A DNA stretch of 64,000 nucleotides, taken from assembly GCA_963760795.1 (NCBI GenBank), contig CAVXEP010000031.1, forward strand, positions 1 to 64,000, given 5' to 3'. Below, one piece after another: positions 24,487 through 42,097 of the stretch; position 1 is the first letter of the stretch; each line of letters begins with the position of its first letter. The translations under genes and the position numbers were made by a program. The notes below the pieces were generated by a model that was not told the DNA's origin, did not search any database, and was given only the letters and a program-made list of their open reading frames with translations. The DNA is from an uncultured delta proteobacterium (GTDB lineage Bacteria; Desulfobacterota; Binatia; UBA9968).

Positions 24487-26803
24487 TTAACGATTCTCCA
24501 TCTTGAGGTTTAACGCGGCGAGGATCTTGTCGGGCCGCACCGGCAAGTCGCGCACACGCACGCCGTTCAGCGCATTGGCGATGGCATTGCCGATCGCCGG
24601 TGCCATCGGCGGCAATGCGGCTTCGCCCATGCCTTTGGCGCCGCACGGGCCTTCGGGATGGGGCGTTTCCACTAGCAACGATTTGAATTCGCCGGGATGG
24701 TCGAGCATGGACGGCAGGAGATAGTCCAGGAAAGTGCCATTGATCGGCTGGCCGTTGTCGTAGCGTAATTCTTCGAACAGCGCCGAGCCCAAGCCGGCGA
24801 GCGCGGAGCCTTCATTTTGCAGACTGCACTGGAGCGGATGGACCGCCTTGCCGACATCGACGGCGCTGGCGACTTGCAAGACGCGCACTTTGCCGGTCTC
24901 GGTGTCGACTTCGACCTCGGCGCCGGCGGCGGAATAGAACCAAAACGACGATCCTTTCCCTTGGCCGGTCACGGCATCGACACCGCCTTCTGTGCGCAGT
25001 GTGTGGCTGCCGAACAAGTTGCCGCTGGCCTCACCGTAGATCGCCTTGAAGAGCTGCGGATAGGTCAGGCTTCGTTCCGGTACGCCCTTCACTTGCATAC
25101 GGCTATCGCGCAGCTCTAAATCCTCGACGCGCGCTTCGAGCGACTTCGCAGCCGCGTGAAATAATTGCTCGCGAATCTGCCCCACGGCGAGCTGTGCCGC
25201 TTTGCCCATGTGAAACGTCGCGCGGCTCGAGCTTGTCGATTTATCGTAGGGAGTAATATCGCTGTCGGGGAATGTCACGGTCACGCGGTCGAAAGGCAGA
25301 GCCAACTCGTCGGCGACGATCTGCGCCAACGCGGTCTGGGCGCCCTGGCCCATGTCGGCGGTGCTGGTCAGCAAGATCGCCGAGCCATCGGCATTCAACC
25401 GCACGCTGGCGGCCGAGGTGCTCGGCGTCGACGTGCTCTTGATCGCCACCGCGAGTCCCTTGCCGCGGACCGTTGCATCGCTGCGCAAGGATTGCTCCGG
25501 AGCTTGCCATTGCATCGCTTCGCAAGGATTGCTCCGCTCCAATTTGCCAATCGATGGATTGAGCCACTTGTTTGAGGCATTCGGAGACACCGACGGAAAT
25601 CATCGGTTCGCCGGTGATGAAATGGTCGTTTTCTTGAAGCAAATTTTTCAGCCGGACTTCGAGCGGGTCGAGATTACAGCGCCGAGCGATGTCGTCGAGG
25701 TCCGATTCGTAGGCCCAGCAGACATGGGAGGCGCCGACGCCACGATAAGGTCCGGCGGGCGGCAGGTTGGTGTAAACCGCGTATGTCGTGAAATCACGAT
25801 GAGGAATGTTGTAGGGACCGCCGGCGATGATGGCGGCGTTCTTGGTGTTCGCCGGACCCGAGAGTGCGTAGGCGCCCATGTCGTACCAGGCGTCGACCTT
25901 GCGCGCCCACAAGCGGCCGTCGCGTTTGAAGCCGGTTTTGATTTTCACTACGGCGCCGAAGCGACGTCCGGTGAAAAAGACTTCGTCGCGGGTGAGAATC
26001 CACTGCACCGGGCGGCGCGCCTTGCGCGCCAGCAGCGCGACCACCGGTTCGATGCGCGCGTGGTTTTTGCCGCCGTAACCGCCGCCGATGAACGGCACGA
26101 CGACGCGCACGCGGTTGAGCGGCATTTTGAATACCTTGGCAATCTGCTCCTGCAGCGGCGACGGCGTCTGGCTCGGCGTATGGACCACCAGCTTACCGCT
26201 CGGCTCCCACAATGCGGTGACCACATGGGGCTCGATGTGGCCATGCTGGACTGGCGGAATTTTATATATATTTTCTATGACTTCGTCTGATTCCTTAAAG
26301 CCTTGCTCGATATTACCGCTGGAGGCCCGATAGACGCCGTGGATGTTGCCGCCGGCGCGTTTGTCGACATGCAGTTCTTGGATGATCGGTGCGCCGGCCT
26401 TGGCCGCTTCGAGGATATCGGTGACTGCCGGCAGTTCTTGGTAATCCGCCTCGATCAGCGCCACCGCCTCCTCGGCGATCTCCCGGCTGTCGGCGGCCAC
26501 CGCGGCAACGATGTCGCCGACGCAGCGCACTTTGTCGATGGTGACCACAGGCTGATCTTCGACACCGGTGCCGAAGTATGGATTCAATCCGGCCAAGTCG
26601 TCCCGTGTCACCACGGCGCGCACGCCGCGCAGCGCGGCGGCTTTGCTGGCATCGATACGAAGCAATTTTGCATGGGGATAGGGGCTGCGCAGCGCCTTGG
26701 CGTAGAGCTGGCCAGTGAACTCCATATCGGCGACGTAGCTCACCGCGCCGCTGACCTTGGCGCGGCCGCCGACCATTTCAACGTTGGTGCCGACCAGGGT
26801 CAT
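24487..26803 (-). CDS. Mo-hydroxylase molybdopterin-binding large subunit, frameshifted near 25470-25540
   Basis: LRSPYPHA, GGGYGGK, PYRGVG in one frame; MGQG, EVEVDTETG, GAKGMGE in another; split at a 37-bp-period duplication. Confidence 0.88.
25473..25536. repeat. Tandem duplication (27-nt core, period 37) inside the large-subunit gene
   Basis: ttgcatcgct(g/t)cgcaaggattgctccg at 25473-25499 and 25510-25536. Confidence 0.9.
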
Positions 26804-27671
26804 GATTTTGTCTCCGTCTTGCCGTTGGCGAGATGTTGCAAAGCGCGGCGGGTTAGCACGCCGACCAGATGGCGCTTGTAGTCCGCCGGCCCCCGCACGT
26901 CGTCGATGGGATCGATAGATCCGAGCGGCCTCGGCGGCGATGGTCACGATTAAGCTCGGCGGAGAGCAGCTTGCCGGTGGCGAGGTTTTCCGCGGCGATG
27001 CGTACTGGCTTCGCCGATACCGCACCCACCGCCACGCGCAGTTCATGGCAAATCCCTTTTTCAATTCTTGCCAACGCGGCAACGCCGGCGCATGGGCGCT
27101 CCTCAGAGGAACCGGTGGTGAATTTAACGTAATGACCGGTCATTCCCACTGGCAGCGGCGGAATCAACACGGCGGCAAGCAATTCGCCCGGCTGAAGCGC
27201 GGTTTCATAACTGCCGAGTTGAAAATCCGTCAGCGCAAGCTGGCGAACCTTGCCAGCATTAATGAGTTCGACTCGGGCATTCAAGGCGGCCAATACGGTC
27301 GGCGGATCGGACTGATAGTCGCCATGGGCGAGATTGCCGCCGATGGTGGCCATGTTGCGGATGCGGATGTTCGCCACCACATGGCAGGCTTCGGCGAGGG
27401 CGGGATAGTGCAGTTGAACGACAGCCGATGATTCGATCTCGTTGATCGTCGCCAGCGCGCCAATGCGCAGGCCCTGGACTGGATCGAACGTGATCGCGGA
27501 AGCGTCGCTGATTTTTTTTAGGTTGACTAGTATCTTCGGCAGCAACAGACCTTGCTTGATGATCGTCAGCAGCGCCGTGCCGCCGGCAACAGCTTTGGCA
27601 TCGGCGCCGTTGGCGAGAATTGAGCAAGCTTCGGACAGCGATCTCGGTTCAACCAAGTCAAAACTACGCAT
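26800..27671 (-). CDS. Mo-hydroxylase FAD-binding subunit, two +1 frameshifts near the 3' end
   Basis: AGGTAL, IRNMATIGGN; removing two bases restores ...DPIDDVRGPADYKRHL..., with the stop overlapping the next ATG. Confidence 0.9.
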
Positions 27672-27677
27672 CCAACG

Positions 27678-27708
27678 CCATCCTCAATCCTCGATTCTCC
27701 ATCGTCGA
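27678..27708. repeat. Solo heptamer array (ATCCTCN-type)
   Basis: ccatcctcaatcctcgattctccatcgtcga; same class as the arms around 40487..40876. Confidence 0.6.
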
Positions 27709-27710
27709 AC

Positions 27711-28419
27711 TCAATTCGCCGCTGGCCGCGGATAAGTTCTGACACTATGCGTCAAGCCCATGCGCACCATCATCTCGGCGGTCTGGATGCTGGTCTTGAG
27801 CGCGTCCATCACCGGCACGCCGAGTTCTTTTTCCATTTCCTGGGGCGAGTATTGCACCGGCACCATGGTCACGCCCATGGGGACGATCACTTCGGCGTCG
27901 CACTGGTCAATTAAATAGCGGGCGACTTCGATGAAGCGGCCGCGCATGGCGTCGCGGTTCTTGGTGCTCTCGGGCAGCGGAATGCCGATGCCGCGGATGC
28001 CGACGACGAAGTCGGCGACGCGCCAGACGTGCATCTGCTTGCGCATGAACGGCACGCTCTTGTCTTCGTAGGCGATCACACCGAGCCGGTTACTCAGCTG
28101 CGCGCCCAGATGCAGCACCGATTGGCCGGCGCCGACTATCGGGTATCTTGACCAGATTGCGCGACAGCTCGACGCCGGCGTCCAAGGTGCCGAAGGGCAC
28201 CACGGCGTCGTAGCCGTTGGCTTCGGCGCGGATGGCGATCTCGGCGACTAGCGGACCGGCCGACAGCGAATTGACCTGCGAGTTGGAGTGGCGAAAGAAA
28301 GTCGCTTTGATCACGTCGAAGCCGATCTCGGTGCCCGGCGAGGCGCATTTGAGCACCGCTTGGCGGCGCCGTTCGCCTTCTTCGGCAGGATATTCGCCCA
28401 TGACGACCATGATTTTCAT
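27711..28419 (-). CDS. Asp/Glu/hydantoin racemase family protein, +1 frameshift near 28141
   Basis: ASPGTEI, AEANGYDAV, ELGVPVMD, LTHS..YP; removing one base joins ORFs 28090..28419 and 27711..28118 (KIPIVGAGQS). Confidence 0.8.
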
Positions 28420-28553
28420 TGTGTTCTCCTCATTGCCGAAATGACTGCGGCGAATATCCCGTATTCGTCAAAGACTTGTCAAACCGCGTCGGACAATTTA
28501 TCGCTTCAGTGATCTTGACAGCTTCGCCAGGGCAAGATTAATTGAGACTTCCT

Positions 28554-29013
28554 ATGAGAATCTCCAACGGCGCTCTCGGTCACATCGTCCTCAATGTCGC
28601 CGACTTGAAGAAGTCCGAGCGATTCTACCAGACGGTTCTCGGCCTCAAGGTCTCGGCGCGCAACTTACAAACCAAGATGACGTTTATGAGCTACGGCCGC
28701 GAGCACCATGACATCGCGCTGCAAGCTCTGCCCAAGGGCGCCAAGCATGTGCGCGGCAAAGGCGTGGCCAAGCTGCACCATTTCTGCTTCTACGTCGATT
28801 CCGAACGAAATCATCGACCAGCTCTATCCGATCTTGAAGCGGCGCAAGATTCCGGTGGTCAGCGGTCCGGAGACTCTGGTGGTGGCGGGCAACCGCTCGG
28901 TGAGCTTTCTCGATCCGGACGGCAACCGCGTCGAAATCGCCTGCAACGCCAACAAATTCAGATTCGACAATCGCATGAAGCCGGCGCCGCCGCGCCGTGA
29001 CCGAAGAAGATGA
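28554..29013 (+). CDS. VOC/glyoxalase family protein, +1 frameshift near 28802
   Basis: LGHIVLNV..SERFY, HHDIAL, LHHF in frame 1; FLDPDGNRVEI in the next frame. Confidence 0.85.
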
Positions 29014-29018
29014 CAGAA

Positions 29019-29088
29019 TTAGCCGCAAGGAACGCAAAGTTCACAAAAAGGAATCGCAACCGATAGGGTCGGGGTTGAAACTCGCTAC
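29019..29088. repeat. CGCAAAG-type repeat plus degenerate REP-like palindrome
   Basis: ttagccgcaaggaacgcaaagttcacaaaaag nearly matches 58804..58835; followed by tagggtcggggttgaaactcgctac. Confidence 0.7.
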
Positions 29089-29110
29089 AAGATTTGTCTT
29101 GAGGTGAATC

Positions 29111-29893
29111 ATGTCGATTGAAGCAGTCCTGAACGGCAAAACCCTGCCGACCAAAGAACTCTGCCAGGTGCTGATGGACGAAGTGAAGAACCGCCACGCC
29201 CGGCTCCATCATCCGTTCTATCGCGATCTGTTCGAGGGCAAGCTGCCCATCGAAGCCGTGCGCATCTGGGCCACGGAAGCCTGGGGCATCTTCGCCTGTA
29301 ATGTCGCGATCAATACCGCCAAGCTGGTGCGCTGCCAGATGTCCGGCATTCACGATCCGGAGATTCACAAGAAGTTTGTCGATGTCATTCATTCCGAGGT
29401 CGGTTACAGCTACTTCGAGGGATCGCCGCGCGCAGTGCTGGGCCACCGGGCGTTGTTTCTGCGCTTCGGCGACGCCATCGGCGTGCCCGCCAAAGAGTTG
29501 GAGCGCTGCGAAATCGAGGAAGACTTTCTGCCCACCACGGTGTTGGCGCGGGTCGGCTGGATGGATATCGCTCTGCGCAGCAACCACATTCTTGAACAAG
29601 TGGCTGCGACCAATTGCTGCAACGAATACTCGAACCATCTCACCGGAGGAAAGTTTTTTCGCGCCTTCAAAGAGCACTATGGTCTGAAGCCCAATGACAT
29701 TGAATTTTTCGCCGAACATGGCGAAGCCGACACCGAACACAGCAACATCGGCTACGAACTGGTCGAACAGTTCGCCACCACCAACGAGATGCAGGTGCGG
29801 GTGGTGAAAGCGTTACGCAAAGGATTGGGTATCTGGTGGGCGATCACCGACGGCGTCGCGCGGGAATGTCAGAAGATTGGAGTGATGGAGTAA
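29111..29893 (+). CDS. Heme-oxygenase-like diiron (PqqC/CADD-like) redox enzyme
   Basis: HPFYRDLFEGKL, SE...GH, NE, FFAEHGEADTEH ligand pattern; GAGGTG RBS. Confidence 0.82.
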   Translation: MSIEAVLNGKTLPTKELCQVLMDEVKNRHARLHHPFYRDLFEGKLPIEAVRIWATEAWGIFACNVAINTAKLVRCQMSGIHDPEIHKKFVDVIHSEVGYSYFEGSPRAVLGHRALFLRFGDAIGVPAKELERCEIEEDFLPTTVLARVGWMDIALRSNHILEQVAATNCCNEYSNHLTGGKFFRAFKEHYGLKPNDIEFFAEHGEADTEHSNIGYELVEQFATTNEMQVRVVKALRKGLGIWWAITDGVARECQKIGVME

Positions 29894-29960
29894 TGGAGTG
29901 TTGGAGTGATGGGCAAACCAGGACTGGAGTGGTGGAGTATTGGAGTAATGGAGTGATGGG
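29878..29960. repeat. Left arm: octamer TGGAGT(A/G)N tandem array in two blocks
   Basis: tggagtgatggagtaatggagtgttggagtgatggg and tggagtggtggagtattggagtaatggagtgatggg. Confidence 0.92.
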
Positions 29961-30397
29961 TGCTCAAGAATAAGAACCGCGGTTATCAGCAGCTCCGAGT
30001 TTGGCACGATGCTATCGAATTTTACCGGCTCACCAGCCAGGTATTTCGGAAGCTACCTTATGAATTGAAACGGGTTGGATCGCAAGCAATAGCGGCAAGC
30101 GATTCCGTTCATCGCAACATTGCCGAGGGATATTGTCGGAAATCGATCAGGGAATATCTCAACTTTCTAAACATAGCTTTGGGTTCGCTCGGAGAGAATG
30201 TCTCCGGGCTTCACGCGTATCGTGAGGCCAGACAAATTACTGATGAGGAGTTCGAGGCTTTAAACGGACTTGCCTTCAAGCTCGAGAATGGGTTACTGAA
30301 ACTTGTTGAAAGTCTCGAAAGAAAGAAACTCGATGGGGATTGGGTCGACAGTCTTATAATCAAGGAAAGCAACGCGAACTACGGGGATTTTAAGTAA
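29960..30397 (+). CDS. Four helix bundle protein (23S rRNA intervening-sequence protein family)
   Basis: YQQLRVW, SVHRNIAEGY, EYLNFLNIALGSLGE motifs. Confidence 0.9.
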   Translation: MLKNKNRGYQQLRVWHDAIEFYRLTSQVFRKLPYELKRVGSQAIAASDSVHRNIAEGYCRKSIREYLNFLNIALGSLGENVSGLHAYREARQITDEEFEALNGLAFKLENGLLKLVESLERKKLDGDWVDSLIIKESNANYGDFK

Positions 30398-30430
30398 AAC
30401 AAAAGTGTCGCGTTGAGGGTTCTCCGAAAC

Positions 30431-30466
30431 CCCATCACTCCAGTACTCCAATACTCCATCACTCCA
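30431..30466. repeat. Right arm: inverted octamer array
   Basis: cccatcactccagtactccaatactccatcactcca is the reverse complement of 29925-29960 at 34/36 positions. Confidence 0.92.
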
Positions 30467-30478
30467 AAAGGGATCGCT

Positions 30479-31036
30479 ATGGACTTCCTGTCTACCTACC
30501 ATCTAAAGAAGTGGGTCAACGAGAATCACCATCTGTTCAATCCACCGTTCAGGACCAATCAGCTTCTCGTTCATCAGAAAGATTTCCTGGTGATGATCCT
30601 GCGCGGGCCGAATACCCGGCTGGATTTTCATATCGAGCCGGGGGATGAGTTCTTTTATCAGGTTGAAGGGGAGATGGAGTTGGTTCTAAAGCCGGAAGGC
30701 GAGCGACGACAAAGTTTCCGGATCAAAGAAGGGGAGATATTCGTCTGTCCCGGCGGCTTGCCCCACTCGCCGCGCCGTTTTGACAACACCTGGGGGCTAG
30801 TGATCGAGCGCAAGCGGCGCCAGGAAGAGAAAGAAGAGTTCGCCTGGTTCTGTGAGCAGTGCGACGAGCTGGTGCTTTCCCGTGTGGTGAACCAGGGGAA
30901 TATCCCGTCGCAAGTGTCGGCGGTTTACACTGAGTTCAATGCCAGCGAAGATATGCGCACGTGCAAGTCATGCGGCTTTGTCTTTCCCGAAACGCCCATG
31001 GCCGAGCGCTTGAGTTTTCTCGATCCGAAGAAATAA
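30479..31036 (+). CDS. nbaC: 3-hydroxyanthranilate 3,4-dioxygenase
   Basis: GPNTRLDFH...EFFYQ, PHSPRR, GLVIER, rubredoxin-like CEQC/CKSC. Confidence 0.88.
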   Translation: MDFLSTYHLKKWVNENHHLFNPPFRTNQLLVHQKDFLVMILRGPNTRLDFHIEPGDEFFYQVEGEMELVLKPEGERRQSFRIKEGEIFVCPGGLPHSPRRFDNTWGLVIERKRRQEEKEEFAWFCEQCDELVLSRVVNQGNIPSQVSAVYTEFNASEDMRTCKSCGFVFPETPMAERLSFLDPKK

Positions 31037-31061
31037 TTCACTTAGCTTTTAGGAGCGATCC

Positions 31062-31607
31062 GTGGACAACAATTATCAAGAAAAATTCGGCTATCCGGCG
31101 GAGCGGACCAGGGGCAAGGTGCGGCCCTATATGGCGGAGTGGATTCAGGATTTTATCCGTCACTCACCGTTCTGCGTCATGGCGACGAGCAGCGCTGAGG
31201 GCAATTGCGATGCGTCGCCAAAGGGCGGCCGGCCGGGATTTGTCAAAATCCTCAACGACAAGCAGTTGTTTCTCCCCGATGTGGCGGGCAACAAGCTGTT
31301 CCATGGCTACGGCAATCTGCAAACCAATGCGAAGATCGGGCTGATCTTTCTTATACCCGGTCACGATAATACCGTTCGGATTAACGGCCGGGTGAAGGTC
31401 GTCGACCGCGCCGAACTGAAAGACGTCCAGCTCGAAGTCTTCAACGCTGACGAGAAGGCCGAGGTTCTACAAGGTTTGCTCATCGACGTCGATGAATCCT
31501 ACAGCCATTGTCCGCGCGCGCTTAAATTCTCCAAACTTTGGGATACCGAGCTGATCGCCAAAAACATCGTCGCGCCGCCTTTGCCTGCCAAAGAACCGGG
31601 AATCTAG
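31062..31607 (+). CDS. Pyridoxamine 5'-phosphate oxidase-like FMN-binding protein
   Basis: FIRHSPF, DASPKGG.PGFV, PDVAGN, HCPRA. Confidence 0.85.
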   Translation: MDNNYQEKFGYPAERTRGKVRPYMAEWIQDFIRHSPFCVMATSSAEGNCDASPKGGRPGFVKILNDKQLFLPDVAGNKLFHGYGNLQTNAKIGLIFLIPGHDNTVRINGRVKVVDRAELKDVQLEVFNADEKAEVLQGLLIDVDESYSHCPRALKFSKLWDTELIAKNIVAPPLPAKEPGI

Positions 31608-31616
31608 ATTCCCCGA

Positions 31617-33054
31617 ATGATGGATCGGGATTTCTGCTTCACCAGCGCCCGTGAACTGGTGGCTTCGATACGCCGCCGATCGATTTCGGCGCGCGAAGTC
31701 ATGGTGGCGTTCCTCGGGCAGATCGCCCGGCTCAATCCCAAGATCAACGCCATCGTCGCCAAGCTGCCTGACGAAGAATGTCTCGCATTGGCGGATGAAG
31801 CAGATCGGCGAATTGCCCGCGGCGCCGCTGTCGGGCCGCTGCACGGTTTGCCTTTCGCTTTCAAAGAACTCGACCCGGTCGTTGGTTTTCCGATGACGCG
31901 GGGGTCGTTGATCTTCAAAGATTTCATGCCCACTGAAGACTCGGTTCTTGCCGAACGGCTGCGCCTTGCCGGCGTGGTGCCGATCGGCAAAACCAACATC
32001 TCCGAGTTCGGCATGGGCTCGCATAGTTACAACGAAGTGTACGGGACCACCCTCAATCCCTACGATTTGACCAAGAGCGCCGGTGGATCGAGCGGCGGCG
32101 CCGGTGCAGCATTGGCGGCGGGTCTGCTGCCGCTAGCCAGCGGCAGCGACCTCGGCGGTTCGCTGCGCAATCCGGCTAACTTCAACAACATCGTCGCGCT
32201 GCGCCCGAGTGTCGGACTGGTGCCGTCCGCGCCTGTGGCGCTGCCGTTTCTGGGCTTTACCGTCAAAGGTCCGATGGCGCGATCGGTGGCGGACACGGCA
32301 TTCTTGTTAAGCGTCATGGCCGGTGCCGATCCACGCGATCCAGCTTGTTATCCGTCCGACCCGCGAATGTTTGCCGAACCATTGGAGTCGCGACTTCAAA
32401 GACGTTCGAATTGCTTGGAGCCCGGATCTCGGCGGCTTGCCGCTCGACCAGCGGGTGCGCGCGGTAATGGCCTCTCAGCGTCAGACATTCGTCGATCTAG
32501 GTTGTGCCGTGGAAGACGCCGTGCCGGATCTTGACCGGCGCCGATGAAGTATTTTTGACGCTGCGGGCCTGGCATTACTGGCACACGCTTGGACCGCTGC
32601 TTGAACGACATCGAGACCGGATGAAAGCGGAAGCTGTGTGGCAGATTGAATTGGGGCGCAATCTTGACTGGCGACGATATCGCGCGAGTGATGCAGCAAC
32701 ATGGTGAGCTCATGCAACGCATGCGCCGCTTTCATGAAAAATATGATTTTCTTATCTGCGCTGTGAACCAGGTGCCGCCCTTCGACGCAACGCTCGACTG
32801 GCCCCACGAGATCGACGGCGTGAAGATGGCAACCTATCTCGATTGGATGAAGTCTGCGTACTGGATTACGCTCGACATTCTGTCCGGCGATTTCCGTCCC
32901 CGCCGGATTTACTCCGGAAGGTTTGCCCGTGGGCATCCAGATTGTCGGGCGCTACCGCGACGATTTCGGCGTGTTGCAGATTGCCCATGCGTTCGAACAG
33001 GCGACACAGTTTGGCAAAGGCAGACCGGCTATCGATAGCTCTGGAGGAATGTAG
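31617..33054 (+). CDS. Amidase (amidase-signature family), several frameshifts in the 3' half
   Basis: GPLHGLP..K, GKTN, GGSSGG, GSDLGGSLRNPA; C-terminal GLPVGIQIVG...AFEQAT found in a shifted frame ending at TAG 33054. Confidence 0.88.
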
Positions 33055-33055
33055 G

Positions 33056-34006
33056 ATGATCTATTTCAGCATCATGTTGGTTTTAGGCATTCTCGCAACT
33101 TCAGCTCAGGCGGTGGACAAGATTCGCATCGGCATGCCGGCTGACGCGGGCCACTTCACGCTTTCGCTCGCGCAAAAGCGCGGTTTCCTGCGCGAAGAGG
33201 GCTTCGATGCCGAGATCATCACGATCACCGGGCCGGTGGCGAATGTCGCATTGGCAAGCGGCGACATTGACTATTACACCGGTTTTGGCTCAGCCCTGCG
33301 CGCAATGCTGCAGGGGCAGCTGCCGACCAGGATCGTGGCTTGCTTTCGGCCGGTGGCGCATTTCGTCTTGCTCAGCCGACCGGAGCTAAAAACCGTCAAA
33401 GATCTCAAGGGCAAAACCATTGGCGCAGCGCCGGGCAGCGCGCCTGATTTGGTCGCTCGCTTGATAATAAAACATTTTGGCATGGACCCGGACAAAGATC
33501 TCAAGTTTATCGCTAGTCCCGGCGGCGAGACCGCACTGATGAGGATGAGTCAGGGACAGCTCGATGCCCAGGTGATGCCGGTTCCTTGGGATTATCGCAG
33601 CAGGAAGTTGGGCTTGACCATCCTGGCGCGAGCCGAAGATCTATTTAGCTATCCGATCAGCGGCCTGATCGCTCATAGCCGCAAGATCAAGGAGCGGCCG
33701 GACGAGATTCGCCGGGCGATCAGGGCCGGCATCAAAGCCAACCGCTACATGCGCGCCAATCGCGACGGGACTATCGAGGTCATGATGAGCACCTACCGGC
33801 TCGACAAAGAGACCGCCACCGCGCTCTACGGCTCGCTGCTGAAGGGCTTTAACGACGACGGCAATCTGCCGGAGGACGGACTGCGCCGACTCATCGAGGA
33901 CACCAAGACGGTGACGAAAGTCGATCGCGAAGTCGTCTTGAACGACGTCGCCGATCTGTCAATCCTGCGCGAAGCCCAGCGAGAGCTGGGTATTAAGGCG
34001 AAATAA
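33056..34006 (+). CDS. ABC substrate-binding protein, SsuA/NMT1 type
   Basis: Signal peptide, GFLREEG, DLKGKTIG, LREAQRELG. Confidence 0.88.
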   Translation: MIYFSIMLVLGILATSAQAVDKIRIGMPADAGHFTLSLAQKRGFLREEGFDAEIITITGPVANVALASGDIDYYTGFGSALRAMLQGQLPTRIVACFRPVAHFVLLSRPELKTVKDLKGKTIGAAPGSAPDLVARLIIKHFGMDPDKDLKFIASPGGETALMRMSQGQLDAQVMPVPWDYRSRKLGLTILARAEDLFSYPISGLIAHSRKIKERPDEIRRAIRAGIKANRYMRANRDGTIEVMMSTYRLDKETATALYGSLLKGFNDDGNLPEDGLRRLIEDTKTVTKVDREVVLNDVADLSILREAQRELGIKAK

Positions 34007-34050
34007 GCCTGGCAAACAGTGACTCGCCAACTCACTAACGATTCATTCGC

Positions 34051-35055
34051 TTACCTCTGGTACAGCTTGGCCACAAAGCCGCTTTTTTCGATCTCGCGCA
34101 TAATCGTGCCGTCGATGAACTGTTCCGGTTTGGCCACCTTGGCGCGGGGATCTTTTTCCGCCATCCAGGTGAGCTGGGTTTGGATCGCCGCGGGCGAGGG
34201 ATGGGGAATCTGCGGATAGAGTTCCTTGTAGAGCTTGTAAACTTCTTCGAGCGTTTCGCGGTCATCTATCTTCAGATACTTGCTCAGCGCCCGGATTGAC
34301 GGCTCCGGGTTCTGTTTGACCATGTAGATACCTTCGACGATGGCGCGCATGTAGCGGGTGATCACCTCGGGTTGGGCTTTCAGATAGGCGCGGCTGGTGA
34401 TCACTTCGAGTTGCGGGAAGGGGATATCGTACTGGGTGGGGTCGACGAGGATGGTGAAGCCGGCTTTCTTGCCGATATTGAAAAATTCCGGCGTCAACAC
34501 CGTGCAGTCGACGCTGCGCTTGCTTAACGCCGATAGCCGCGTGCTCGTGCCGCCGGTTTGCAGCAGGGTGACATCCTTGTCGGGCGCCAATCCGTAGCGC
34601 TGCAGGATTAACCGCGCCGCGAGATCGGATGCGCTGCCAAAGCGTGACACCGCCAAGCGCTTGCCCTTGAGCTGGTCGATGGTCTTTATTTCTTTTTGCG
34701 CCAGCAGCGCGTAGGGCATGCGGCTTTCGATGCTCGAGATCGACACGATATCGCTGCCCGCCAGATTGCTACTGACTGCAACGGTGCCGCCGCCCATGGC
34801 GATTTGCGTCTCTCCGGCGGTGAGCGCCTGCACCGTGGTGACGCCGCTCTCGATCAAAACGACGTCGACGCTGAGCCCATGCTTCTCGAATATCTTGGCT
34901 TCCTTGGCGAGCCAGTAAGCCGCCATATTAGCCGTAAGCGCGCTGTAGGAAGTCTTGAGGCGGGTAACCTGGGCGTGGGCGTCCACCGAAGCCAGCACGC
35001 TCGCCAAAAGGATCAGGCCGATGGGTCTGATCCGCCGGATCCGGCTGATCTTCAT
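34051..35055 (-). CDS. ABC substrate-binding protein, SsuA/NMT1 type
   Basis: Signal peptide, FEKHGL, LKGKRLAVSRFGS, KPEQFID. Confidence 0.9.
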   Translation of the reverse strand: MKISRIRRIRPIGLILLASVLASVDAHAQVTRLKTSYSALTANMAAYWLAKEAKIFEKHGLSVDVVLIESGVTTVQALTAGETQIAMGGGTVAVSSNLAGSDIVSISSIESRMPYALLAQKEIKTIDQLKGKRLAVSRFGSASDLAARLILQRYGLAPDKDVTLLQTGGTSTRLSALSKRSVDCTVLTPEFFNIGKKAGFTILVDPTQYDIPFPQLEVITSRAYLKAQPEVITRYMRAIVEGIYMVKQNPEPSIRALSKYLKIDDRETLEEVYKLYKELYPQIPHPSPAAIQTQLTWMAEKDPRAKVAKPEQFIDGTIMREIEKSGFVAKLYQR

Positions 35056-35888
35056 GATGCCTCATCCTCGCTCATTAGAAATTCCGTCAGCGCGCGGTTA
35101 AACTCTTCAGTCTCTTCAATCTGCGGTTCATGGGCCGAATGTTTGAAGCGATAAACCTTGGAGCCGGGAACGATTTTTTGAAAATTGACATCCCAATCGC
35201 TCTGGTTGAGCGGATCATGTTCGCAGGACATGAGCAGCAGCGGGATGGTCAGCTGCGACAGTTGCTTGACAAACTCATCGGTGGTCGAGCGCACTTGATG
35301 CGCCGGGCTGCGCAAGCGCGCCGCTGAAAGCGTTTCCCAGGCGCCCGGCAGGATCGAGCTCTCGTAACGCTCGCGAATGTTGTCATCGCTCTGCCATTTT
35401 GCATCGTGATAGAGCAGCGCAATAAGCTTTTTCATGTTCTCCAATGACGGCGTATAGTTTTCCAGGTCGGCTTGAGAGTTGGTCTTGAACACGCTGGCGT
35501 TGCCGCAGATGGTGACCATCTTACGGATCTGCAGCGGCGCCGGTTGGCGCACGGATGCGCGCAAGACCAAGCCGCCGCCGGCGGAATTGCCGACGAAGAA
35601 CGCCTTGGCGATGCCCAATGATTCGAGAAAACGCTGGAGGTGCTTGATGCGCAGGCCGGCGGGATCGCTAAAGCTGTAAAGTTTGTCGGTTTGTCCCCAG
35701 CCCAAGGTGTCCGGTGCGACAACGTGAAAAGTCTTTGCCAGTGCGTCGATGTTATAGCGCCAGGTTATCTCTGCCGACGCGCCGTACTCGCCGCCATGAA
35801 GTAACACCAGATCGGGGCCGCTGCCGCCTTCGAGGAAATGAGTCTTGATGTCGCCGACGACAATGGTCCGGTGCTGATAAGCGGCCAT
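35052..35888 (-). CDS. Alpha/beta hydrolase (meta-cleavage product hydrolase-like)
   Basis: LLHGG, GNSAGG nucleophile elbow, HD, SAHEPQIE. Confidence 0.88.
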   Translation of the reverse strand: MAAYQHRTIVVGDIKTHFLEGGSGPDLVLLHGGEYGASAEITWRYNIDALAKTFHVVAPDTLGWGQTDKLYSFSDPAGLRIKHLQRFLESLGIAKAFFVGNSAGGGLVLRASVRQPAPLQIRKMVTICGNASVFKTNSQADLENYTPSLENMKKLIALLYHDAKWQSDDNIRERYESSILPGAWETLSAARLRSPAHQVRSTTDEFVKQLSQLTIPLLLMSCEHDPLNQSDWDVNFQKIVPGSKVYRFKHSAHEPQIEETEEFNRALTEFLMSEDEAS

Positions 35889-35970
35889 CGATCTAGTTCC
35901 TTAAATAATTGCCCGTGGGAGCCAAGCGTCGGCAGGGCAAACCCGGGGGTTGCGCGTACAATTCCGATTC

Positions 35971-35993
35971 CTCTTTGCGTTCTTTGCGGCCAA
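35971..35993. repeat. CGCAAAG-type repeat half
   Basis: ctctttgcgttctttgcggccaa, reverse complement of the 58804/29019 unit. Confidence 0.65.
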
Positions 35994-36010
35994 CCGTCTC
36001 TTTCCCTAAA

Positions 36011-36781
36011 TTACAGAAAACAAACCCCGCCGTCGACGGCGACGGTCTGGCCGGTCATGAAATCGCTCAGCGGGGAAGCGAGAAACAGCATAGTGCCGAC
36101 GAGATCTTTCGGTAGCTGGACGCGCTTGAGTGCACGGTCGGACAATCTTGCGCCGCGCATTTTGAGAACTTCTTCGGTGGGGTTCTCTTCGGACAAGGTC
36201 GAGCCGGGGGCGATGGCGTTGACGTTGATGTTATCTTCGCCGACTTCGCGGGCTAAAGTGCGGGTGAAGCCGATGACGCCAGCCTTGGAAGTGACGTAGT
36301 GAATCCGCCCGGCGCTGCCATTGAGCGCCGTGCCGGAAGAGATATTGATGATCTTGCCCGACTTTTGTTGGCGCATGGTTGGCAGCACTGCACGAGAACA
36401 AAAAAATAAACCCTTGAGATTGACCGTCATCATGCGGTCCCACTCCGCCGGATCGATGGTGTCGATACCGCCGCGGTTCATCGGAATCGTCGAAAATATC
36501 GCCGCGTTGTTGACCAGCACGTCGATCCGGCTGAATTTATCCAACGTCAGTTTGGCCATATCTTTGGTCGACTGCTCGTTGGCGACGTCGACTTTCGCCG
36601 CCAGCGCTTTGCCATCGAATTGCTGGACCACCTCGCCGGCGACTTTTTCCGCCGCCGGCGCGTCGATGTCCGCGACTATTACCTTCGCCCCCGCTTCAGC
36701 GAAACCGTGACAATAAGCCCGGCCGATGCCGTGGCCGCCGCCGGTGACGATAACCACTTTGTCTTTTAGTCCTTGAATCAT
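36011..36781 (-). CDS. SDR family oxidoreductase
   Basis: TGGGHGIG, NNA, YVTSK, VDGG. Confidence 0.93.
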   Translation of the reverse strand: MIQGLKDKVVIVTGGGHGIGRAYCHGFAEAGAKVIVADIDAPAAEKVAGEVVQQFDGKALAAKVDVANEQSTKDMAKLTLDKFSRIDVLVNNAAIFSTIPMNRGGIDTIDPAEWDRMMTVNLKGLFFCSRAVLPTMRQQKSGKIINISSGTALNGSAGRIHYVTSKAGVIGFTRTLAREVGEDNINVNAIAPGSTLSEENPTEEVLKMRGARLSDRALKRVQLPKDLVGTMLFLASPLSDFMTGQTVAVDGGVCFL

Positions 36782-36905
36782 AAAATAGCTCCATTAATTT
36801 GCTTTGCCGTCAAAATAGCCTTAGATGTTTTTAACTGTCAAGGCGAGTTATTGCGTCTAACGAAAAAAGCGGGGATTATGCGTCAGCAAAAAGGCGGTCG
36901 TTTGA

Positions 36906-37628
36906 ATGAGAACGTGGTTCAGTCTTAAAGCGGTTGCGCTCGTGCTTAGCATTTTAGTCAATTGCGGCTTGGTTGGTGCCGCGGCGCAAACGCCCGTGAA
37001 TCCCGACACATTGCCGATGTTCGGCCAGCCGAAGGTAGTCCGATCGGACAGCCAGAAGCAAGCCGATGAAGCGTTTATGCGCGACAACACGCTGCGCTAT
37101 AAAACTCGTCAAGCCGCTAGCAGTGCTTTCGTTTCCCAAGGTTGGAGTGCGGTGCGAGCGAAGCAGCTCGATGCGGCGATGCTGCGCTTCAATCATGCCT
37201 GGCTGCTCAATCCCAAAAACTACAGCGCCTTCTGGGGCTTCGGTGCGGTATTGAGCGAGCGCGGCAAGTTGATGGAAGCGATCGAGCAGTTAGAGACGGC
37301 GCGGGAACTGATCGACGACCCGACGCAGAGACCGGCGTTGCTCGCCGATCTCGGCAATGTCCACTCTGAATACGCTGCTCGCCTCGGCACCGACAAGCAG
37401 TTGGAGCGGGCTCATCATTTCGTTGTGGCCAATAGCCGCTTTACCGAAAGCCTGGAGAACGATCCCAAGTTCGCCTCGGGTTGGCGCGAGTGGGCAATCT
37501 CGTTATACGAGCAGGAGCGCTACTCGGAAGCGTGGATCAAAGCCAAGCGTGCCCGCGAACTCAAGGCCGAGCCGTTTTCTCCGGAGTTTTTGAAAAAACT
37601 CTCGGCCAAGATGCCGGAACCTAAATAA
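36906..37628 (+). CDS. Exported TPR-repeat protein
   Basis: Signal peptide, LPMFG, AMLRFNHAWLLNP, helical TPR pattern. Confidence 0.75.
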   Translation: MRTWFSLKAVALVLSILVNCGLVGAAAQTPVNPDTLPMFGQPKVVRSDSQKQADEAFMRDNTLRYKTRQAASSAFVSQGWSAVRAKQLDAAMLRFNHAWLLNPKNYSAFWGFGAVLSERGKLMEAIEQLETARELIDDPTQRPALLADLGNVHSEYAARLGTDKQLERAHHFVVANSRFTESLENDPKFASGWREWAISLYEQERYSEAWIKAKRARELKAEPFSPEFLKKLSAKMPEPK

Positions 37629-37649
37629 CTCTAGCGAAGTAGCCATCGC

Positions 37650-38492
37650 ATGTCGCGCTTCACCATCGCGCAGACCATCGAGCAGCTTGATCCGGAGAAG
37701 GATAACCAACGGATTGTTTTTCTCTCATCGCGCTATGACTTTCCCTTCGATACCACTCGAGCGCTGGAGTTCGCCTTGTTTCGGACGTTTTGCGTGCCGA
37801 GCATATCCGCCTTGCTGGAGCGCACCGGCGAATTTGTGCAGCGGCCGCAAAAACGCTACGACGACACCGACATCATCGTCAGCGAGTTGATGGAATGGGG
37901 TTATGACGGCGAGCGGGGGCAGAGGGCGCTGCGCCGCTTGAATCAGCTCCACGGCAGGTTTGCCATTGCCAACGAGGATTTTCTTTACGTATTATCGACG
38001 TTTATTTATGAACCGATTCGTTGGAACCAGCGCTTCGGTTGGCGCGCCATGAGCGAGGTGGAACGACGCGGCTATTTTTATTTTTGGCGCGAAGTCGGCC
38101 AGCGCATGAATATAAAAGACATTCCGCTGGACTATGCCCGCTTTGAGCAGTTCAATCTAGACTACGAGGCGCGCCATTGCCGTTACAGCGAGGCGAATCA
38201 ACGTGTCGGAAGCGCGACCAGAGAATTGATGGTGAGTTGGTTTCCGCGATTCTTGGCGCCGCTGGTCAGATTGGCAATCTATTCATTGCTCGATCCCCGC
38301 GCGCTCGCCGCCTTTGGCTTTCCGCAGCCGGCCGGCGCGGTGCGTTGGTTAATGATCAGGGCGTTGAGGCTGCGCGGCTGGTTCGCTAGTTATTTTCCCG
38401 GACGCCTGCGTCCGCGCTTGAGAACTGAGATGGTTCATCGTAGCTACCCCGCCGGATACCGGATCGAAGATGTGGGTCCGCCGAGAAAGTAG
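37650..38492 (+). CDS. Oxygenase MpaB/DUF2236 family protein
   Basis: LFRTF.VPSI, KRYDDT, NQLH, DFLYVLSTF. Confidence 0.82.
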   Translation: MSRFTIAQTIEQLDPEKDNQRIVFLSSRYDFPFDTTRALEFALFRTFCVPSISALLERTGEFVQRPQKRYDDTDIIVSELMEWGYDGERGQRALRRLNQLHGRFAIANEDFLYVLSTFIYEPIRWNQRFGWRAMSEVERRGYFYFWREVGQRMNIKDIPLDYARFEQFNLDYEARHCRYSEANQRVGSATRELMVSWFPRFLAPLVRLAIYSLLDPRALAAFGFPQPAGAVRWLMIRALRLRGWFASYFPGRLRPRLRTEMVHRSYPAGYRIEDVGPPRK

Positions 38493-38500
38493 CGGCGCAC

Positions 38501-39400
38501 ATGTTGAAGCGGTGGGCCCGAGGGGAGACAAAGTCAATGGCCATGTTTCGACGGTTGGCATATCTCCACCGACCCGGCCGGCGTGGCGTGGTTCTCACTG
38601 TGGCGATATGGCTCTGGGCGATCGACTGTTCGGCGCAATCTAGCAGGGATAAGGAGCAACTATTGACGTTTTGGGCCGGTACTCTGCCGATCATTCTCGC
38701 GGCGCCCCATGGTGGCCGTGAGCCGATCCCTGGTATCGCCCCGCGCCGGGGTATCGGCGTGTCGCAATTCGTCGCTGAGCGCGACAGCAATACCGCCGAA
38801 CTGGCTGAAGCCGTCGCGCTTAAGCTGCGGGAACGATTGGGCGCAACGCCGTTTCTCGTCATCGCCCGTTTTGAACGCAAATTTATCGACGCCAACCGCG
38901 AGCCGGCGGCGGCCTATGAAATGCCCCAAGCCAAACTCCATTACGATGCCTACCACCGAGCTATTGGCGATGCGGTCGAGGCGATCCGCCAGAAGTGGGG
39001 CAGCGGTCTGTTGCTCGACATTCACGCCCAACGGGCGCAGGCGGACACGATTTTCCGCGGTACCGATAACGGCAGGAGTGTAAGCCAATTACAAAGGCAA
39101 TTTGGCCAAGCTGCACTGTCAGGACCGAATAGCGTTCTCGGCCATCTGGCTGCGAACGGTTATAAAATCCTGCCGAATTTGACCGGCCAAGATCGAGAGA
39201 CTCGTTACACCGGCGGTTATACGACCCGTACCTACGGCAGCCATCGAGGGACAAAGATCGACGCCATCCAGTTGGAACTGGGTAGCGATCTGCGCGCCAA
39301 GGCAAACCTGGAGCGCACCGCCAACGATTTTGCCCTTGCCGTCGCAGTGTTCGCCCGCGAGTATCTGCTCCGCAGCGACGGATTCGATCCACCACGTTGA
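38501..39400 (+). CDS. N-formylglutamate amidohydrolase-like protein, probably exported
   Basis: APHGG, DANR, YH, LLDIH, GGYTT, AIQLE; start uncertain. Confidence 0.78.
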   Translation: MLKRWARGETKSMAMFRRLAYLHRPGRRGVVLTVAIWLWAIDCSAQSSRDKEQLLTFWAGTLPIILAAPHGGREPIPGIAPRRGIGVSQFVAERDSNTAELAEAVALKLRERLGATPFLVIARFERKFIDANREPAAAYEMPQAKLHYDAYHRAIGDAVEAIRQKWGSGLLLDIHAQRAQADTIFRGTDNGRSVSQLQRQFGQAALSGPNSVLGHLAANGYKILPNLTGQDRETRYTGGYTTRTYGSHRGTKIDAIQLELGSDLRAKANLERTANDFALAVAVFAREYLLRSDGFDPPR

Positions 39401-39493
39401 GGCGGAAAAGCTGATTTACGCCGCAAGCCTCATCAGCGCCCGTTGGCTTAGCGATAGTTCGTGAAATCTGTCGATTCCGCCGAGTTGGCCACC

Positions 39494-40327
39494 CTACACC
39501 GCGATAGTTTGTCCACCGTCGACAACCAGAGCATGACCGGTAACGAAGGTTGCTTCATCGGAAACTAGGAAGAGCACGCCGTAGGCGATCTCTTCCGGGC
39601 GGCCCATGCGGAGCAGGGCTTTGTTGCTGGCGCTCATCCGCTTTCTTTGCTCGTCGGTGGTGCCTTCACCGAGCGTCGGTCTGGGCGGAAAACCTCTGAA
39701 GCGCGGCGTCTCGATGGCGCCGGGACAGACGCAGTTGACGCGTATCCCAAGCGGGCCGTAGTCGATGGCCATCTCACGGGTGAGATTGACGATCGCGGCT
39801 TTGGTGGCGCAGTAGCCGGGATATTCCGCCGAGGCGAGCAGACCAAAGGTCGACGCGGTTGTCACCATGTTGCCGCTGCCTTGTTTGATGAAAGCTGGCA
39901 TCACCGCCTTGGCGCCGCGGTACATGGCATTCAAGTTGGTGTTCAGGACAAAGTTCCATTCCTCGTCGGTATGCTCATGGATTTTTTTGCGAATGCCGGC
40001 ACCGGCATTGTTATAAAGGATATCGATCTTGCCAAAGGTATCGACCGCGGTCTTCACGGCGCGGTCCAAGTCTTCCTGCTTGGTGACATCGCAATGGGCA
40101 AACACCGCGTCTCCGCCTTCTTTCTCCTTGATCAAGGTGTCGATGCGCGGCGAAATGGTTTCTTGGATATCGCAGCATACGACTTTCGCGCCCTCGCGAG
40201 CGAACAGCCGTGAGGTGGCGCGGCCGATACCGCTGTTGGCTCCAGTAATAATCGCAACTTTACCTTTGAGCCGTCCCAGTCCGGGACGTAGCATATCGTG
40301 TTCGTCTTTGAGAATAATTTCCGCCAT
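39494..40327 (-). CDS. SDR family oxidoreductase
   Basis: TGANSGIG, NNAG, YCATK, VDGG. Confidence 0.93.
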   Translation of the reverse strand: MAEIILKDEHDMLRPGLGRLKGKVAIITGANSGIGRATSRLFAREGAKVVCCDIQETISPRIDTLIKEKEGGDAVFAHCDVTKQEDLDRAVKTAVDTFGKIDILYNNAGAGIRKKIHEHTDEEWNFVLNTNLNAMYRGAKAVMPAFIKQGSGNMVTTASTFGLLASAEYPGYCATKAAIVNLTREMAIDYGPLGIRVNCVCPGAIETPRFRGFPPRPTLGEGTTDEQRKRMSASNKALLRMGRPEEIAYGVLFLVSDEATFVTGHALVVDGGQTIAV

Positions 40328-40415
40328 TGCTTGTGCCTCCTGGATTTTAATGTGAAGTTCTTCGCTTCACTTATCCCAGTGCGGCGCGGGATTTCAACCG
40401 TGGGGGGAACGAATC

Positions 40416-40445
40416 GATGATGGAGGATCGATGATTGAGGATGGA
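40416..40445. repeat. Left arm: heptamer GA(G/T)GATN array
   Basis: gatgatggaggatcgatgattgaggatgga. Confidence 0.8.
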
Positions 40446-40486
40446 CTTTCAGAGTAGTATAGGGACGATTGCGAGCTGGAGGGTTT

Positions 40487-40876
40487 ATGGCAAGTATTCG
40501 AAGCTTCCGTGACTTGGACGTCTATACGCAAGCGCGCCAGCAGGCAAAGAACGTCTTTGTGATATCAAAGCGATTCCCAAGGGAAGAGAGATATTCTCTG
40601 ACCGACCAAATTCGGCGATCGTCTCGGGCTGTCAACGCGATGATCGCGGAAGCTTGGGCACGGCGAGTCTACCCAGCGGCGTTCGTGAACAAGATCGATG
40701 AAGCTCTGGGGGAGGCGATGGAAACCCAGGCATGGCTGGATCATGCTCTTGACTGCGGTTACCTCGATGGAAAAGAGCATGAAGCGCTTGACGACGCTTG
40801 GCAGCGCATTGGCGCGATGTTAAATCGGATGATCCAACGCGCAGATGATTTCTGTAAAACGGCCAGTCGTCAATAG
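40487..40876 (+). CDS. Four helix bundle protein (23S rRNA intervening-sequence protein family)
   Basis: SFRDLDVY, FPREERYSLTDQIRRSSRAV...IAEAW, EAMETQAWL..A..CGY; GGAGG RBS. Confidence 0.93.
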   Translation: MASIRSFRDLDVYTQARQQAKNVFVISKRFPREERYSLTDQIRRSSRAVNAMIAEAWARRVYPAAFVNKIDEALGEAMETQAWLDHALDCGYLDGKEHEALDDAWQRIGAMLNRMIQRADDFCKTASRQ

Positions 40877-40892
40877 CAATCCGGCCCCATTC

Positions 40893-40915
40893 TCTATCCT
40901 CAATCATCCATCCTC
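40893..40915. repeat. Right arm: inverted heptamer array
   Basis: tctatcctcaatcatccatcctc is the reverse complement of 40423-40445 at 21/23 positions. Confidence 0.8.
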
Positions 40916-40927
40916 GACCCGCATCCC

Positions 40928-41914
40928 TCATCTACGGTACAGCTGCTTGATAAATCCCGACTTCTCCAGTTCAGCGACCAGGCTCATGTCGACAAAGGTT
41001 TTCGCGTCGGCGCTTGCCGCTTTGGGGTTTTTTAGCGCGAGGTCGTCGAGCATGGTTTTAACACCATCCGGCGTCGGGTAGGGGACTTCGGGAAAAGCAT
41101 TCGAATAGGCGATGTAGGCTCGCTCCAGTCCCTCGGCATCGCCGATGCCGAGATTTTTCTTGAATAGTCCCTTGGCGTATTCTTTCTCGGTTTTAATGAT
41201 GTGAATCGCTTCGACCATGGCGCGCGTGAGTTTCTGCATCAAGGGCCGTTTGGTTCGGACAATCGCTTCGCGCGTGAGGATGCCGTTCCACCAGAAGGGA
41301 ATTTTTAAGTCGGTGATATTGTATAGATTGCGAAAACCGAGCTTCTCGGCTTGGGTCAAAAAAGGTTCCGGCATGATCGTGAATTGCGTCAGCCCCTTAG
41401 CCAGCGCGGCGAACCGTTCAGCGCCGCCCCCGGCGGGAATGATCTGCACGTCCTTTTCGGGATCGATGCCGAGCTTGCGCAGGGCCAGGCGCAAGCCCAA
41501 GTCCGAGGTGCTGCCGAGTCGGTTCACGCCCCCGGTTTGGCCCTTCAGCTGTTCGATACGGGTGATTTTAGCGACGGAAACGATATGATCGACGAAGGTC
41601 GGCACGACACCGACGATCATCACCGCGTCGGCGCCGGCGAGACGCGAGCTGGTTAGAGTCGTGACCGAAATACTGGCGGCGTCGATTTCGTTCGCGAGAA
41701 GCGCTTGTAGCACCGTTGGGCTCGCGCTGATCGCGATAATCTCCGGCGTGACGCCTTGTTTCTGCATGAGCTTGCGGTCTTCGATCACCCAGATCGGGCT
41801 GTTGGTCGGACTGAAGCCGGCCCATGCCAAACGCAATTTCTCCTGGGCGACGGCAAACGGCGATTGCCCAGCCATGACCAGAATGACGGCGAGGGTATAG
41901 ATTATTTTTATCAT
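40928..41914 (-). CDS. ABC substrate-binding protein, SsuA/NMT1 type
   Basis: AGGAGG RBS, signal peptide, LKGQTGGVNRLGS, SGFIKQLY. Confidence 0.9.
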   Translation of the reverse strand: MIKIIYTLAVILVMAGQSPFAVAQEKLRLAWAGFSPTNSPIWVIEDRKLMQKQGVTPEIIAISASPTVLQALLANEIDAASISVTTLTSSRLAGADAVMIVGVVPTFVDHIVSVAKITRIEQLKGQTGGVNRLGSTSDLGLRLALRKLGIDPEKDVQIIPAGGGAERFAALAKGLTQFTIMPEPFLTQAEKLGFRNLYNITDLKIPFWWNGILTREAIVRTKRPLMQKLTRAMVEAIHIIKTEKEYAKGLFKKNLGIGDAEGLERAYIAYSNAFPEVPYPTPDGVKTMLDDLALKNPKAASADAKTFVDMSLVAELEKSGFIKQLYRR

Positions 41915-42097
41915 CACAGCTTCCTCCTGAACGATTAGACGGCAGAAGTTATCCCTTACTCGCCTCGAGATCAACAAAAAGGTCCAGCCTAGGAATAATA
42001 CTAATCCCATAGGCCCGATCCCCGGGGAAGCCATTACGTTGACTCGATATATCAATTGGTATACCTAGGAGCGGGCTTCAAAAGGAGGCGCAAGTTT

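Follow-up and report, generated by a model that had tools for sequence, protein, structure and literature searches.

The window analyzed here, a stretch of 64,000 nucleotides from an uncultured delta proteobacterium, carries a small cassette between two genes of a metabolic operon. The cassette consists of a gene for a four-helix-bundle protein enclosed by inverted tandem arrays of the octamer TGGAGTNN, and its parts are arranged as follows:

29111..29893, plus strand: upstream host gene HDO, with a heme-oxygenase-like/TenA-PqqC-CADD fold (PF14518, 61.8 bits; PF03070, 31.6 bits)
29878..29912, plus strand: left arm, outer block of four TGGAGTNN units plus TGG
29913..29924, plus strand: purine-rich linker of 12 nt separating the two left blocks (similar linkers occur in loci L010, L015, and L021)
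29925..29960, plus strand: left arm, inner block, with four TGGAGTNN units plus TGG at 29925-29959
29960..30397, plus strand: four-helix-bundle ORF of 145 amino acids with a GTG start (PF05635/TIGR02436)
30398..30430, plus strand: inner right spacer, with a TCCGA core at 30423-30427
30431..30466, minus strand: right arm, four units plus TGG, inverted
30479..31036, plus strand: downstream host gene nbaC, 3-hydroxyanthranilate 3,4-dioxygenase (TIGR03037, 181.7 bits against a cut-off of 145.95; PF06052)

The arrangement described in the earlier note was confirmed in its details. Over 34 of 36 positions, the right arm (30431-30466) matches the reverse complement of 29925-29960. The outer left block contains the TAA stop codon of HDO (29891-29893), so that the arm now supplies the last codons of this gene, the 3' end of which differs in relatives with an empty site. 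The inner left block provides a GGAG ribosome-binding site (29950-29953) located 6 nt before the GTG start, and the first base of this start codon is also the last base (29960) of the inner arm segment. The GC content of the ORF is 0.47, compared to 0.57 genome-wide, and the TCCGA core of the right spacer also marks the loops of hairpins that carry no gene (hereafter, empty hairpins).

Profile matches identified the neighbors of the cassette as metabolic genes, and no transposase was found in the cassette or among the neighbors scanned, as the earlier note had stated. The cassette lies between HDO and nbaC and not in an rRNA gene, and there was no Rfam match, at E-values up to 1, in positions 28500-42000. 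Additionally, no long direct repeat pair occurred within 29000-31500, and a search for a promoter or terminator belonging to the cassette returned 2 promoter-like sites versus 1.8 expected, neither of them at the cassette. Elsewhere in the window (24487-29013 and 31617-33038), host genes for molybdopterin dehydrogenase subunits, a racemase-like protein, a glyoxalase-like protein, and an amidase appear in pieces in different frames, possibly because of indels in the assembly.

Protein family and predicted structure

The ORF product scored above the cut-offs of TIGR02436 (70.3 bits; cut-off 24) and PF05635 (66.4 bits; cut-off 33.8), and its profile matches were limited to PF05635 and TIGR02436/PRK12275, which agrees with its previous assignment to the family of 23S rRNA intervening-sequence (IVS) proteins. 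The predicted model consists of four long helices (pLDDT 88.9). The best Foldseek matches were XCC0516 (PDB 2GSC, rmsd 0.8-1.0), followed by BT_0352 (PDB 2RLD) and then, weakly, by Avd. The first two are also the sequence relatives with solved structures (E-values of 6e-7 and 8e-4, respectively) and are thus the closest in both sequence and fold, but the cassette subfamily differs from them in an invariant NxNRG motif at the N-terminus and in a WxD-L-xKESN tail at the C-terminus. Weak matches to YadA and to ankyrin designs were discarded as coiled-coil noise.

The structural kinship with Avd suggested in the earlier note was recovered as a shared fold with the Avd of diversity-generating retroelements (DGR; PDB 4DWL and 8UB7; TM 0.81-0.87 by target length, E-values of 0.08-0.13). 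Sequence identity to Avd is around 10%, and in contrast to the DGR setting, no reverse transcriptase was found near the cassette or in the genome, and no diversifying target is evident. XCC0516 is a homopentamer (PMC4990558), and the 2GSC entry has five chains, from which a homopentameric ring can be predicted for the cassette protein. Every one of the five protomers of the Avd pentamer takes part in binding an RNA stem-loop (11-bp stem, UNCG loop), and flipped-out bases are accommodated in crevices between the protomers (bioRxiv 10.1101/2023.10.23.563531; see also PMC10053308).

Genome-wide repeats and further cassettes

Arrays of the TGGAGTNN type numbered 121 in the genome, compared to none in either of two genomes simulated from it with an order-5 Markov model; given these counts and the predicted fold of the region (z = -5.2, see below), the arrays at the locus are not due to chance. 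They group into 82 clusters, two of which are the arms of the HDO-nbaC cassette, and almost all clusters are intergenic according to heuristic gene calls. Among 40 inverted array pairs, 36 are gene-less hairpins with spacers of 6-31 nt. With 121 arrays present, these repeats are not special to the four-helix-bundle gene; the earlier note had overlooked the genome-wide family of empty hairpins. Of the other family genomes searched, 35 of 36 had the repeat pattern, as opposed to 0 of 24 from two other families, and a reversed-pattern control gave 0 matches in all genomes searched.

The loops of the empty hairpins also share a signature. TCCG or CGGA occurred in 36 of the 61 distinct spacers collected from four relatives (7.4 after shuffling) and in 11 of 17 spacers of this genome (2.5 after shuffling), and a TCCGA core was located just inside the right arm at all 7 filled HDO-nbaC sites. 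The core showed no orientation bias relative to transcription in the empty hairpins (14 vs. 13, with heuristic gene calls), which argues against a simple model of scars left by sense insertions, as such a model predicts a defined orientation. The median hairpin density was 28.5 per Mb in 7 genomes harboring the cognate gene versus 11.9 in 24 genomes lacking it (p = 0.025, with kin not being independent). Three genomes (G011, G018, and G019; 91-94% complete) had hairpins as dense as those of gene carriers, with no cognate gene detected, and the densest hairpins were found in G023 (97% complete).

Other families of inverted tandem hairpins are also spread through this genome (G000), with units based on GTTCAA (7/8-mer, 100 clusters), GTTCCA (9-mer), AGGCA, and GAGTA (7-mers). 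Many of these hairpins carry a TCCGA or TCGGA loop core, which may be a host-wide signal.

Five further PF05635 paralogues were found in G000, each flanked by inverted arrays with a unit of its own; some of these units, at the least, also occur as dispersed arrays:

40411..40932 of the window: second intact four-helix-bundle cassette, with the ORF at 40487..40876 (PF05635, 98.8 bits) and inverted heptamer arms
C32:416198: paralogue with its own inverted tandem unit, apparently intact
C25:182751, C19:326276, and C4:214404: paralogues, each with its own inverted tandem unit, apparently broken or partial

In the relative G019, the junction corresponding to the second cassette of the window is occupied by an empty TGGAGT hairpin. 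Besides, genes of the GxxExxY family (PF13366, PD-(D/E)xK-like) lie inside inverted 9-mer arrays on three contigs of G000 (L259 on C7, L260 on C23, and L261 on C4), and one of these 9-mers has around 25 empty hairpin matches genome-wide. The first two loci are nearly identical stretches encoding a kinase, the GxxExxY protein, and a regulator, due to duplication or assembly redundancy. These genes indicate that more than one protein family uses the inverted-arm architecture, and the arms may be a host-made vehicle, since unrelated genes share them.

Distribution of the cassette and pairing of repeats and proteins

A protein search recovered 4,435 homologues with E-values of 1e-20 or better. Both arms were present at 69 of the best 80 genomic loci, compared to 0 of 236 control windows. 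The 11 loci missed by the scan include four from Lentisphaerota, with a TGGATG unit outside the scan pattern, and two cut by contig ends. Likewise, among 80 metagenomic loci compared, 70 of the 71 with enough flanking sequence carried both arms. The homologues are therefore highly enriched in flanking arrays, and the discrete unit of gene plus arms proposed in the earlier note recurs at many other operon junctions. Neighbor clustering divided the 80 genomic loci into up to 46 groups, which is an upper bound because ORF picking was heuristic, and the neighbors include murG-murC, ftsA-ftsZ, pyrH-frr, dehydrogenase E2-lpd, cobT-cobS, and hydrogenase subunits (identities based on Pfam matches for 47 of 101 neighbor representatives). 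The cassette was co-oriented with the genes on both sides at 54 of 73 genomic loci. In 78 of 80 loci, of which one is an edge artefact, the ORF had a lower GC content than its flanks. Some arms in other phyla comprise as many as 16 units. Viral carriage was limited to one distant match among 207 pattern matches.

A tree of 67 intact proteins, from which 14 loci flagged as broken by a frame rule (some probably wrongly) were omitted, indicated that the unit type tracks the protein clade and not the host. One clade is associated with TGGAGT, TGGATG, or TGGGGT units (42 rows) and the other with TGGAAT or TGGAAA units (25 rows, one without a call), both with support of 100/100. The second clade is found mainly in Bacteroidota, and five Thermodesulfobacteriota or Myxococcota hosts are nested inside it. 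Both unit types also coexist in one assembly (L090 and L128). Protein positions 38, 42, 45, 48, 51, and 105 separate the two clades, although the independent contrasts between repeat and protein are few, corresponding to two deep clades and two small ones.

The HDO-nbaC junction in related genomes

Thirty nbaC loci were compared, and 17 genomes of the genus had an orthologous HDO directly upstream; the remaining 13 were set aside due to a different gene order or genus. Seven of the 17 junctions are filled (four intact ORFs, two with a stop at the Trp15 codon, and one with a frameshift that could be an assembly error), one has only degenerate arms, seven hold other sequence, mostly of other repeat families, and two are empty, with HDO and nbaC only 10 bp apart. 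The comparison of orthologous operons suggested in the earlier note thus revealed empty sites, and the absence of the cassette from many orthologous junctions is at odds with universal synteny and vertical inheritance. Among the loci set aside, L011 has arms with an ORF remnant, L026 only a left arm, L032 degenerate arms, and L033 an empty hairpin, so that one junction shows filled, remnant, arms-only, and empty states. The premature stops of L010 and L021 are independent, even though both affect the Trp15 codon. In L009, L011, and L024 a distant second HDO paralogue (29% identity) either separates HDO from nbaC or immediately precedes nbaC.

Filled sites are scattered on the recA tree, and the nearest relative, G019, lacks the cassette. 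The cognate gene was detected in 11 of 90 family genomes as a single close homologue each, nine at HDO-nbaC and two at another junction, and arms were seen at these loci. A filled metagenomic cassette (L290) lies at the 3' end of an SDR gene; the corresponding site of G019 (80.6% identity over 883 nt) carries an empty hairpin, and that of G000 is free of repeats. No target-site duplication was visible, and the empty-site relatives are too diverged at the junction for one to be read. Of 34 hairpins of G019 that were tried, 26 could be placed in G000; the hairpin or its remains occurred at 21, often rewritten, and the other five sites held two GTTCAA-type arrays, one REP-like palindrome, the 40.4-40.9 kb cassette, and one plain spacer.

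Besides, 25 of 26 metagenomic homologues with at least 79% identity adjoin HDO or nbaC, with L290 as the exception; mobility is real but slow. The element is thus far less mobile than the word selfish in the earlier note implied, and it is likely a slow-moving selfish cassette.

The ORF is under purifying selection (dN/dS of 0.04-0.16 where dS is finite), yet it is often broken or lost, and its tree roughly follows the recA tree. Third-position differences between G000 and G023 were 34 of 142 in the ORF and 192 of 435 in the flanks (p = 2e-5), and those between G000 and G022 were 8 of 142 and 79 of 435, respectively. Moreover, quartet patterns favored the pair G000 and G023 for the ORF and the pair G023 and G006 for recA. 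An AU test did not reject the species-tree topology for the ORF, so the case for transfer is based on distances and site patterns only. We read these data as an old insertion that has been lost many times and has probably been exchanged between species at the same site.

RNA stem or row of binding sites

The earlier note regarded the cassette as a unit defined by a stem in mRNA. According to this explanation, the arms pair in the transcript, RNase III cuts out the ORF loop, and the excised RNA is the mobile intermediate. In agreement with it, the two arms pair as a long stem in the predicted fold of the 631-nt region (z = -5.2 versus 20 shuffles), most cassettes are co-oriented with their operon, and the 23S rRNA IVS of Coxiella burnetii, which encodes a protein of the same family (S23p) and lies in helix 45, combines a 28-bp terminal stem, tandem heptamers before the ORF, and cutting by RNase III (PMC4990558). 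A looser count across 71 filled genomic loci also placed facing G·U slightly above A·C combinations (100:75, p = 0.07).

However, the variable bases of the arms do not behave as paired bases. In 27 orthologous cassettes, facing variable bases matched in 48 cases versus 46.3 expected and in 41 versus 43.6 expected, out of 97; hence, the complementarity of 34/36 is largely the outcome of a consensus fixed at six of eight positions and placed in inverted orientation. An excess of G·U over A·C was absent from these cassettes (22:22), from 46 other cassettes (39:40), and from the empty hairpins (42:40). With neither covariation nor more G·U than A·C, a stem specific to RNA is not supported, and the definition of the unit by its mRNA stem was not upheld. 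Furthermore, no reverse transcriptase (PF00078) was found in G000 (89% complete), G018, or G023 (97% complete), and the enzyme occurred in only 8 of 24 genus relatives. The near-silence assumed for such an element would also not be expected in mRNA, since a cut would separate two cistrons, unlike the fragments of an rRNA, which are held in the ribosome. Overall, an intervening sequence of the mRNA seems an unlikely account of this locus.

Eight public sequencing runs were compared with the region. Four RNA runs, consisting of assembled contigs only, contained 0.06-0.10 of its words. One of them included two contigs of 151 nt that match the interior of the ORF with 0 and 2 differences, and none of the contigs spanned the cassette. 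Arm-to-arm joints in RNA contigs come from other hairpins, since they have other letters between the arms and the same joints occur in four DNA runs.

Within the arms, the hexamer core is conserved and the two spacer bases vary freely, with 3-5 copies per arm and usually 4-5 at HDO-nbaC, where 38 of 54 arms have four full units plus TGG. Judging from the sequence, this combination of conserved cores and free spacers looks like a row of recognition sites. A DGR-like adenine mutagenesis was discarded as the source of the variable bases, considering that the A of the core is nearly invariant and that purines occupy the first variable position almost without exception.

The spacer dinucleotides also avoid repetition in the empty hairpins of G000, G011, G018, G019, and G023. 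Facing identical dinucleotides were fewer than expected by chance in empty hairpins (9 of 110 vs. 16.0), as they were in 38 empty hairpins of four other genomes (7 of 113 vs. 16.9). The same dinucleotide in adjacent units was also rare, both in empty hairpins (6 of 177 vs. 24.6 and 7 of 177 vs. 25.8 expected) and at the HDO-nbaC junction (3 of 147 vs. 17.9); in cassettes of other lineages this avoidance was absent (41 of 262 vs. 37.3). The simplest cause would be that DNA tends to lose palindromes and tandem copies when they are perfect, and it is also possible that periodic mismatches are read by the protein.

Discussion

The cassette shares features with two known systems. RAYT/REPIN systems (Bertels and Rainey 2011, PMC3116915) tie a single cognate gene to repeats that form extragenic inverted doublets predicted as hairpins, and the cassette family resembles them in its abundant extragenic inverted doublets with short spacers and in its several repeat groups, each with its own gene. 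Unlike RAYT, the cassette protein is a non-catalytic-looking four-helix bundle and not a tyrosine transposase; its arms are tandem, non-palindromic TGGAGTNN 8-mers with free spacer bases, and no transposition intermediate was seen. The ORF-bearing rRNA intervening sequences, such as that of Coxiella burnetii, share the PF05635 protein, terminal inverted repeats, short tandem repeats just before the ORF, and decay of the ORF in some strains. In contrast to them, the cassette occurs between protein-coding genes at many operon junctions, both of its arms are tandem octamer arrays, and its repeats have dozens of gene-less copies genome-wide. The cassette therefore resembles RAYT/REPIN in layout and the ORF-bearing rRNA IVS in content and is a member of neither, since it has no transposase and no palindromic REP units and is not located in rRNA. 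The tandem heptamers before the Coxiella ORF suggest that ORF-bearing rRNA intervening sequences could be the same cassette landed in rRNA. No description of an intergenic cassette with a four-helix-bundle gene and arms outside rRNA was found in the literature covered, to which subscription journals and supplements did not belong.

The best reading of these data is a transposase-free, REPIN-like cassette, in which a predicted pentamer would bind its own 4-5 cores. It is very probable that the cassette behaves as a unit, with gains, losses, and occasional moves, and rather likely that the encoded protein recognizes its own repeats. On balance, we favor the fuller account in which the HDO-nbaC locus harbors a long-resident copy of a widespread cassette, and the predicted pentamer would bind the repeat cores specific to its lineage and help rare moves that host enzymes may carry out. 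A catalytic partner did not emerge, given that no reverse transcriptase was found in G000 or in G023, which weighs against this account.

Some ring proteins wrap repeats of single-stranded nucleic acid. By the same principle, each protomer of the putative ring may hold one core, although arms of up to 16 units in other phyla fit a strict five-site rule poorly. The lineage-specific arms and the four-helix-bundle gene would move as one unit into new gene junctions, where read-through could express the ORF, with the GGAG in the cassette's arm as ribosome-binding site. Empty hairpins may be scars of lost ORFs, and they may also serve as landing pads that a filled copy enters by recombination through the arms. 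At an occupied site, the ORF may be exchanged between species.

An alternative is that the cassette is a domesticated host module, with hairpins selected as mRNA-stability or termination signals and homogenized by gene conversion, and with a dispensable RNA-binding regulator that is inherited mostly vertically. The strength of purifying selection, which is similar to that of housekeeping genes, the long residence at one site across genera, and the rough agreement of the ORF and recA trees are all consistent with this idea, as is the persistence of hairpins in genomes with no gene detected. Moreover, four of the five G000 sites without the G019 hairpin hold another repeat or cassette, as if these junctions favored some hairpin. 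Nevertheless, 3 of the 7 copies of the gene in the genus are broken, the gene was not found in 79 of 90 family genomes, its neighbors are unrelated between lineages, several paralogues with different units coexist in one genome, and the low GC content of the ORF relative to its flanks is almost universal. Considering both sides, we regard domestication as improbable, to the same degree as excision from mRNA. Finally, the chance capture of an unrelated small gene by one hairpin of a host repeat family, which would fit the abundance of the repeat in the family and the origin of most close homologues from one insertion, is largely refuted and highly improbable, given that homologues in other phyla occupy dozens of other sites with the same arms and that unit type tracks protein clade across hosts.

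The favored reading of a self-recognizing, transposase-free cassette can be extended to a bolder proposal, which we consider tentative and rather doubtful. The cassette could represent an undescribed class of mobile elements without a catalytic enzyme of its own, in which a pentameric ring would read 4-5 cores by a lineage-specific residue-to-base code (with positions 38, 42, 45, 48, 51, and 105 as candidates), pair the ends, and recruit host machinery. Empty hairpins would then be its non-autonomous progeny as well as its landing pads, Avd and the intervening sequences of rRNA would have arisen as captured offshoots, and the unrelated, nuclease-like GxxExxY family would be served by the same arm architecture.

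The PF05635 family is very large (4,435 matches for this subfamily alone) and has solved structures and no known function. The locus provides a concrete candidate ligand (TGGAGT cores), natural specificity variants (TGGAAT and TGGATG), and candidate specificity residues, making the function of the family directly testable. If the interpretation as a cassette is true, it would explain the origin of ORF-bearing rRNA intervening sequences and of Avd, and it would account for abundant intergenic tandem hairpins of unassigned origin. Besides, a small ring with a readable short-repeat code could serve as a programmable nucleic-acid binder.
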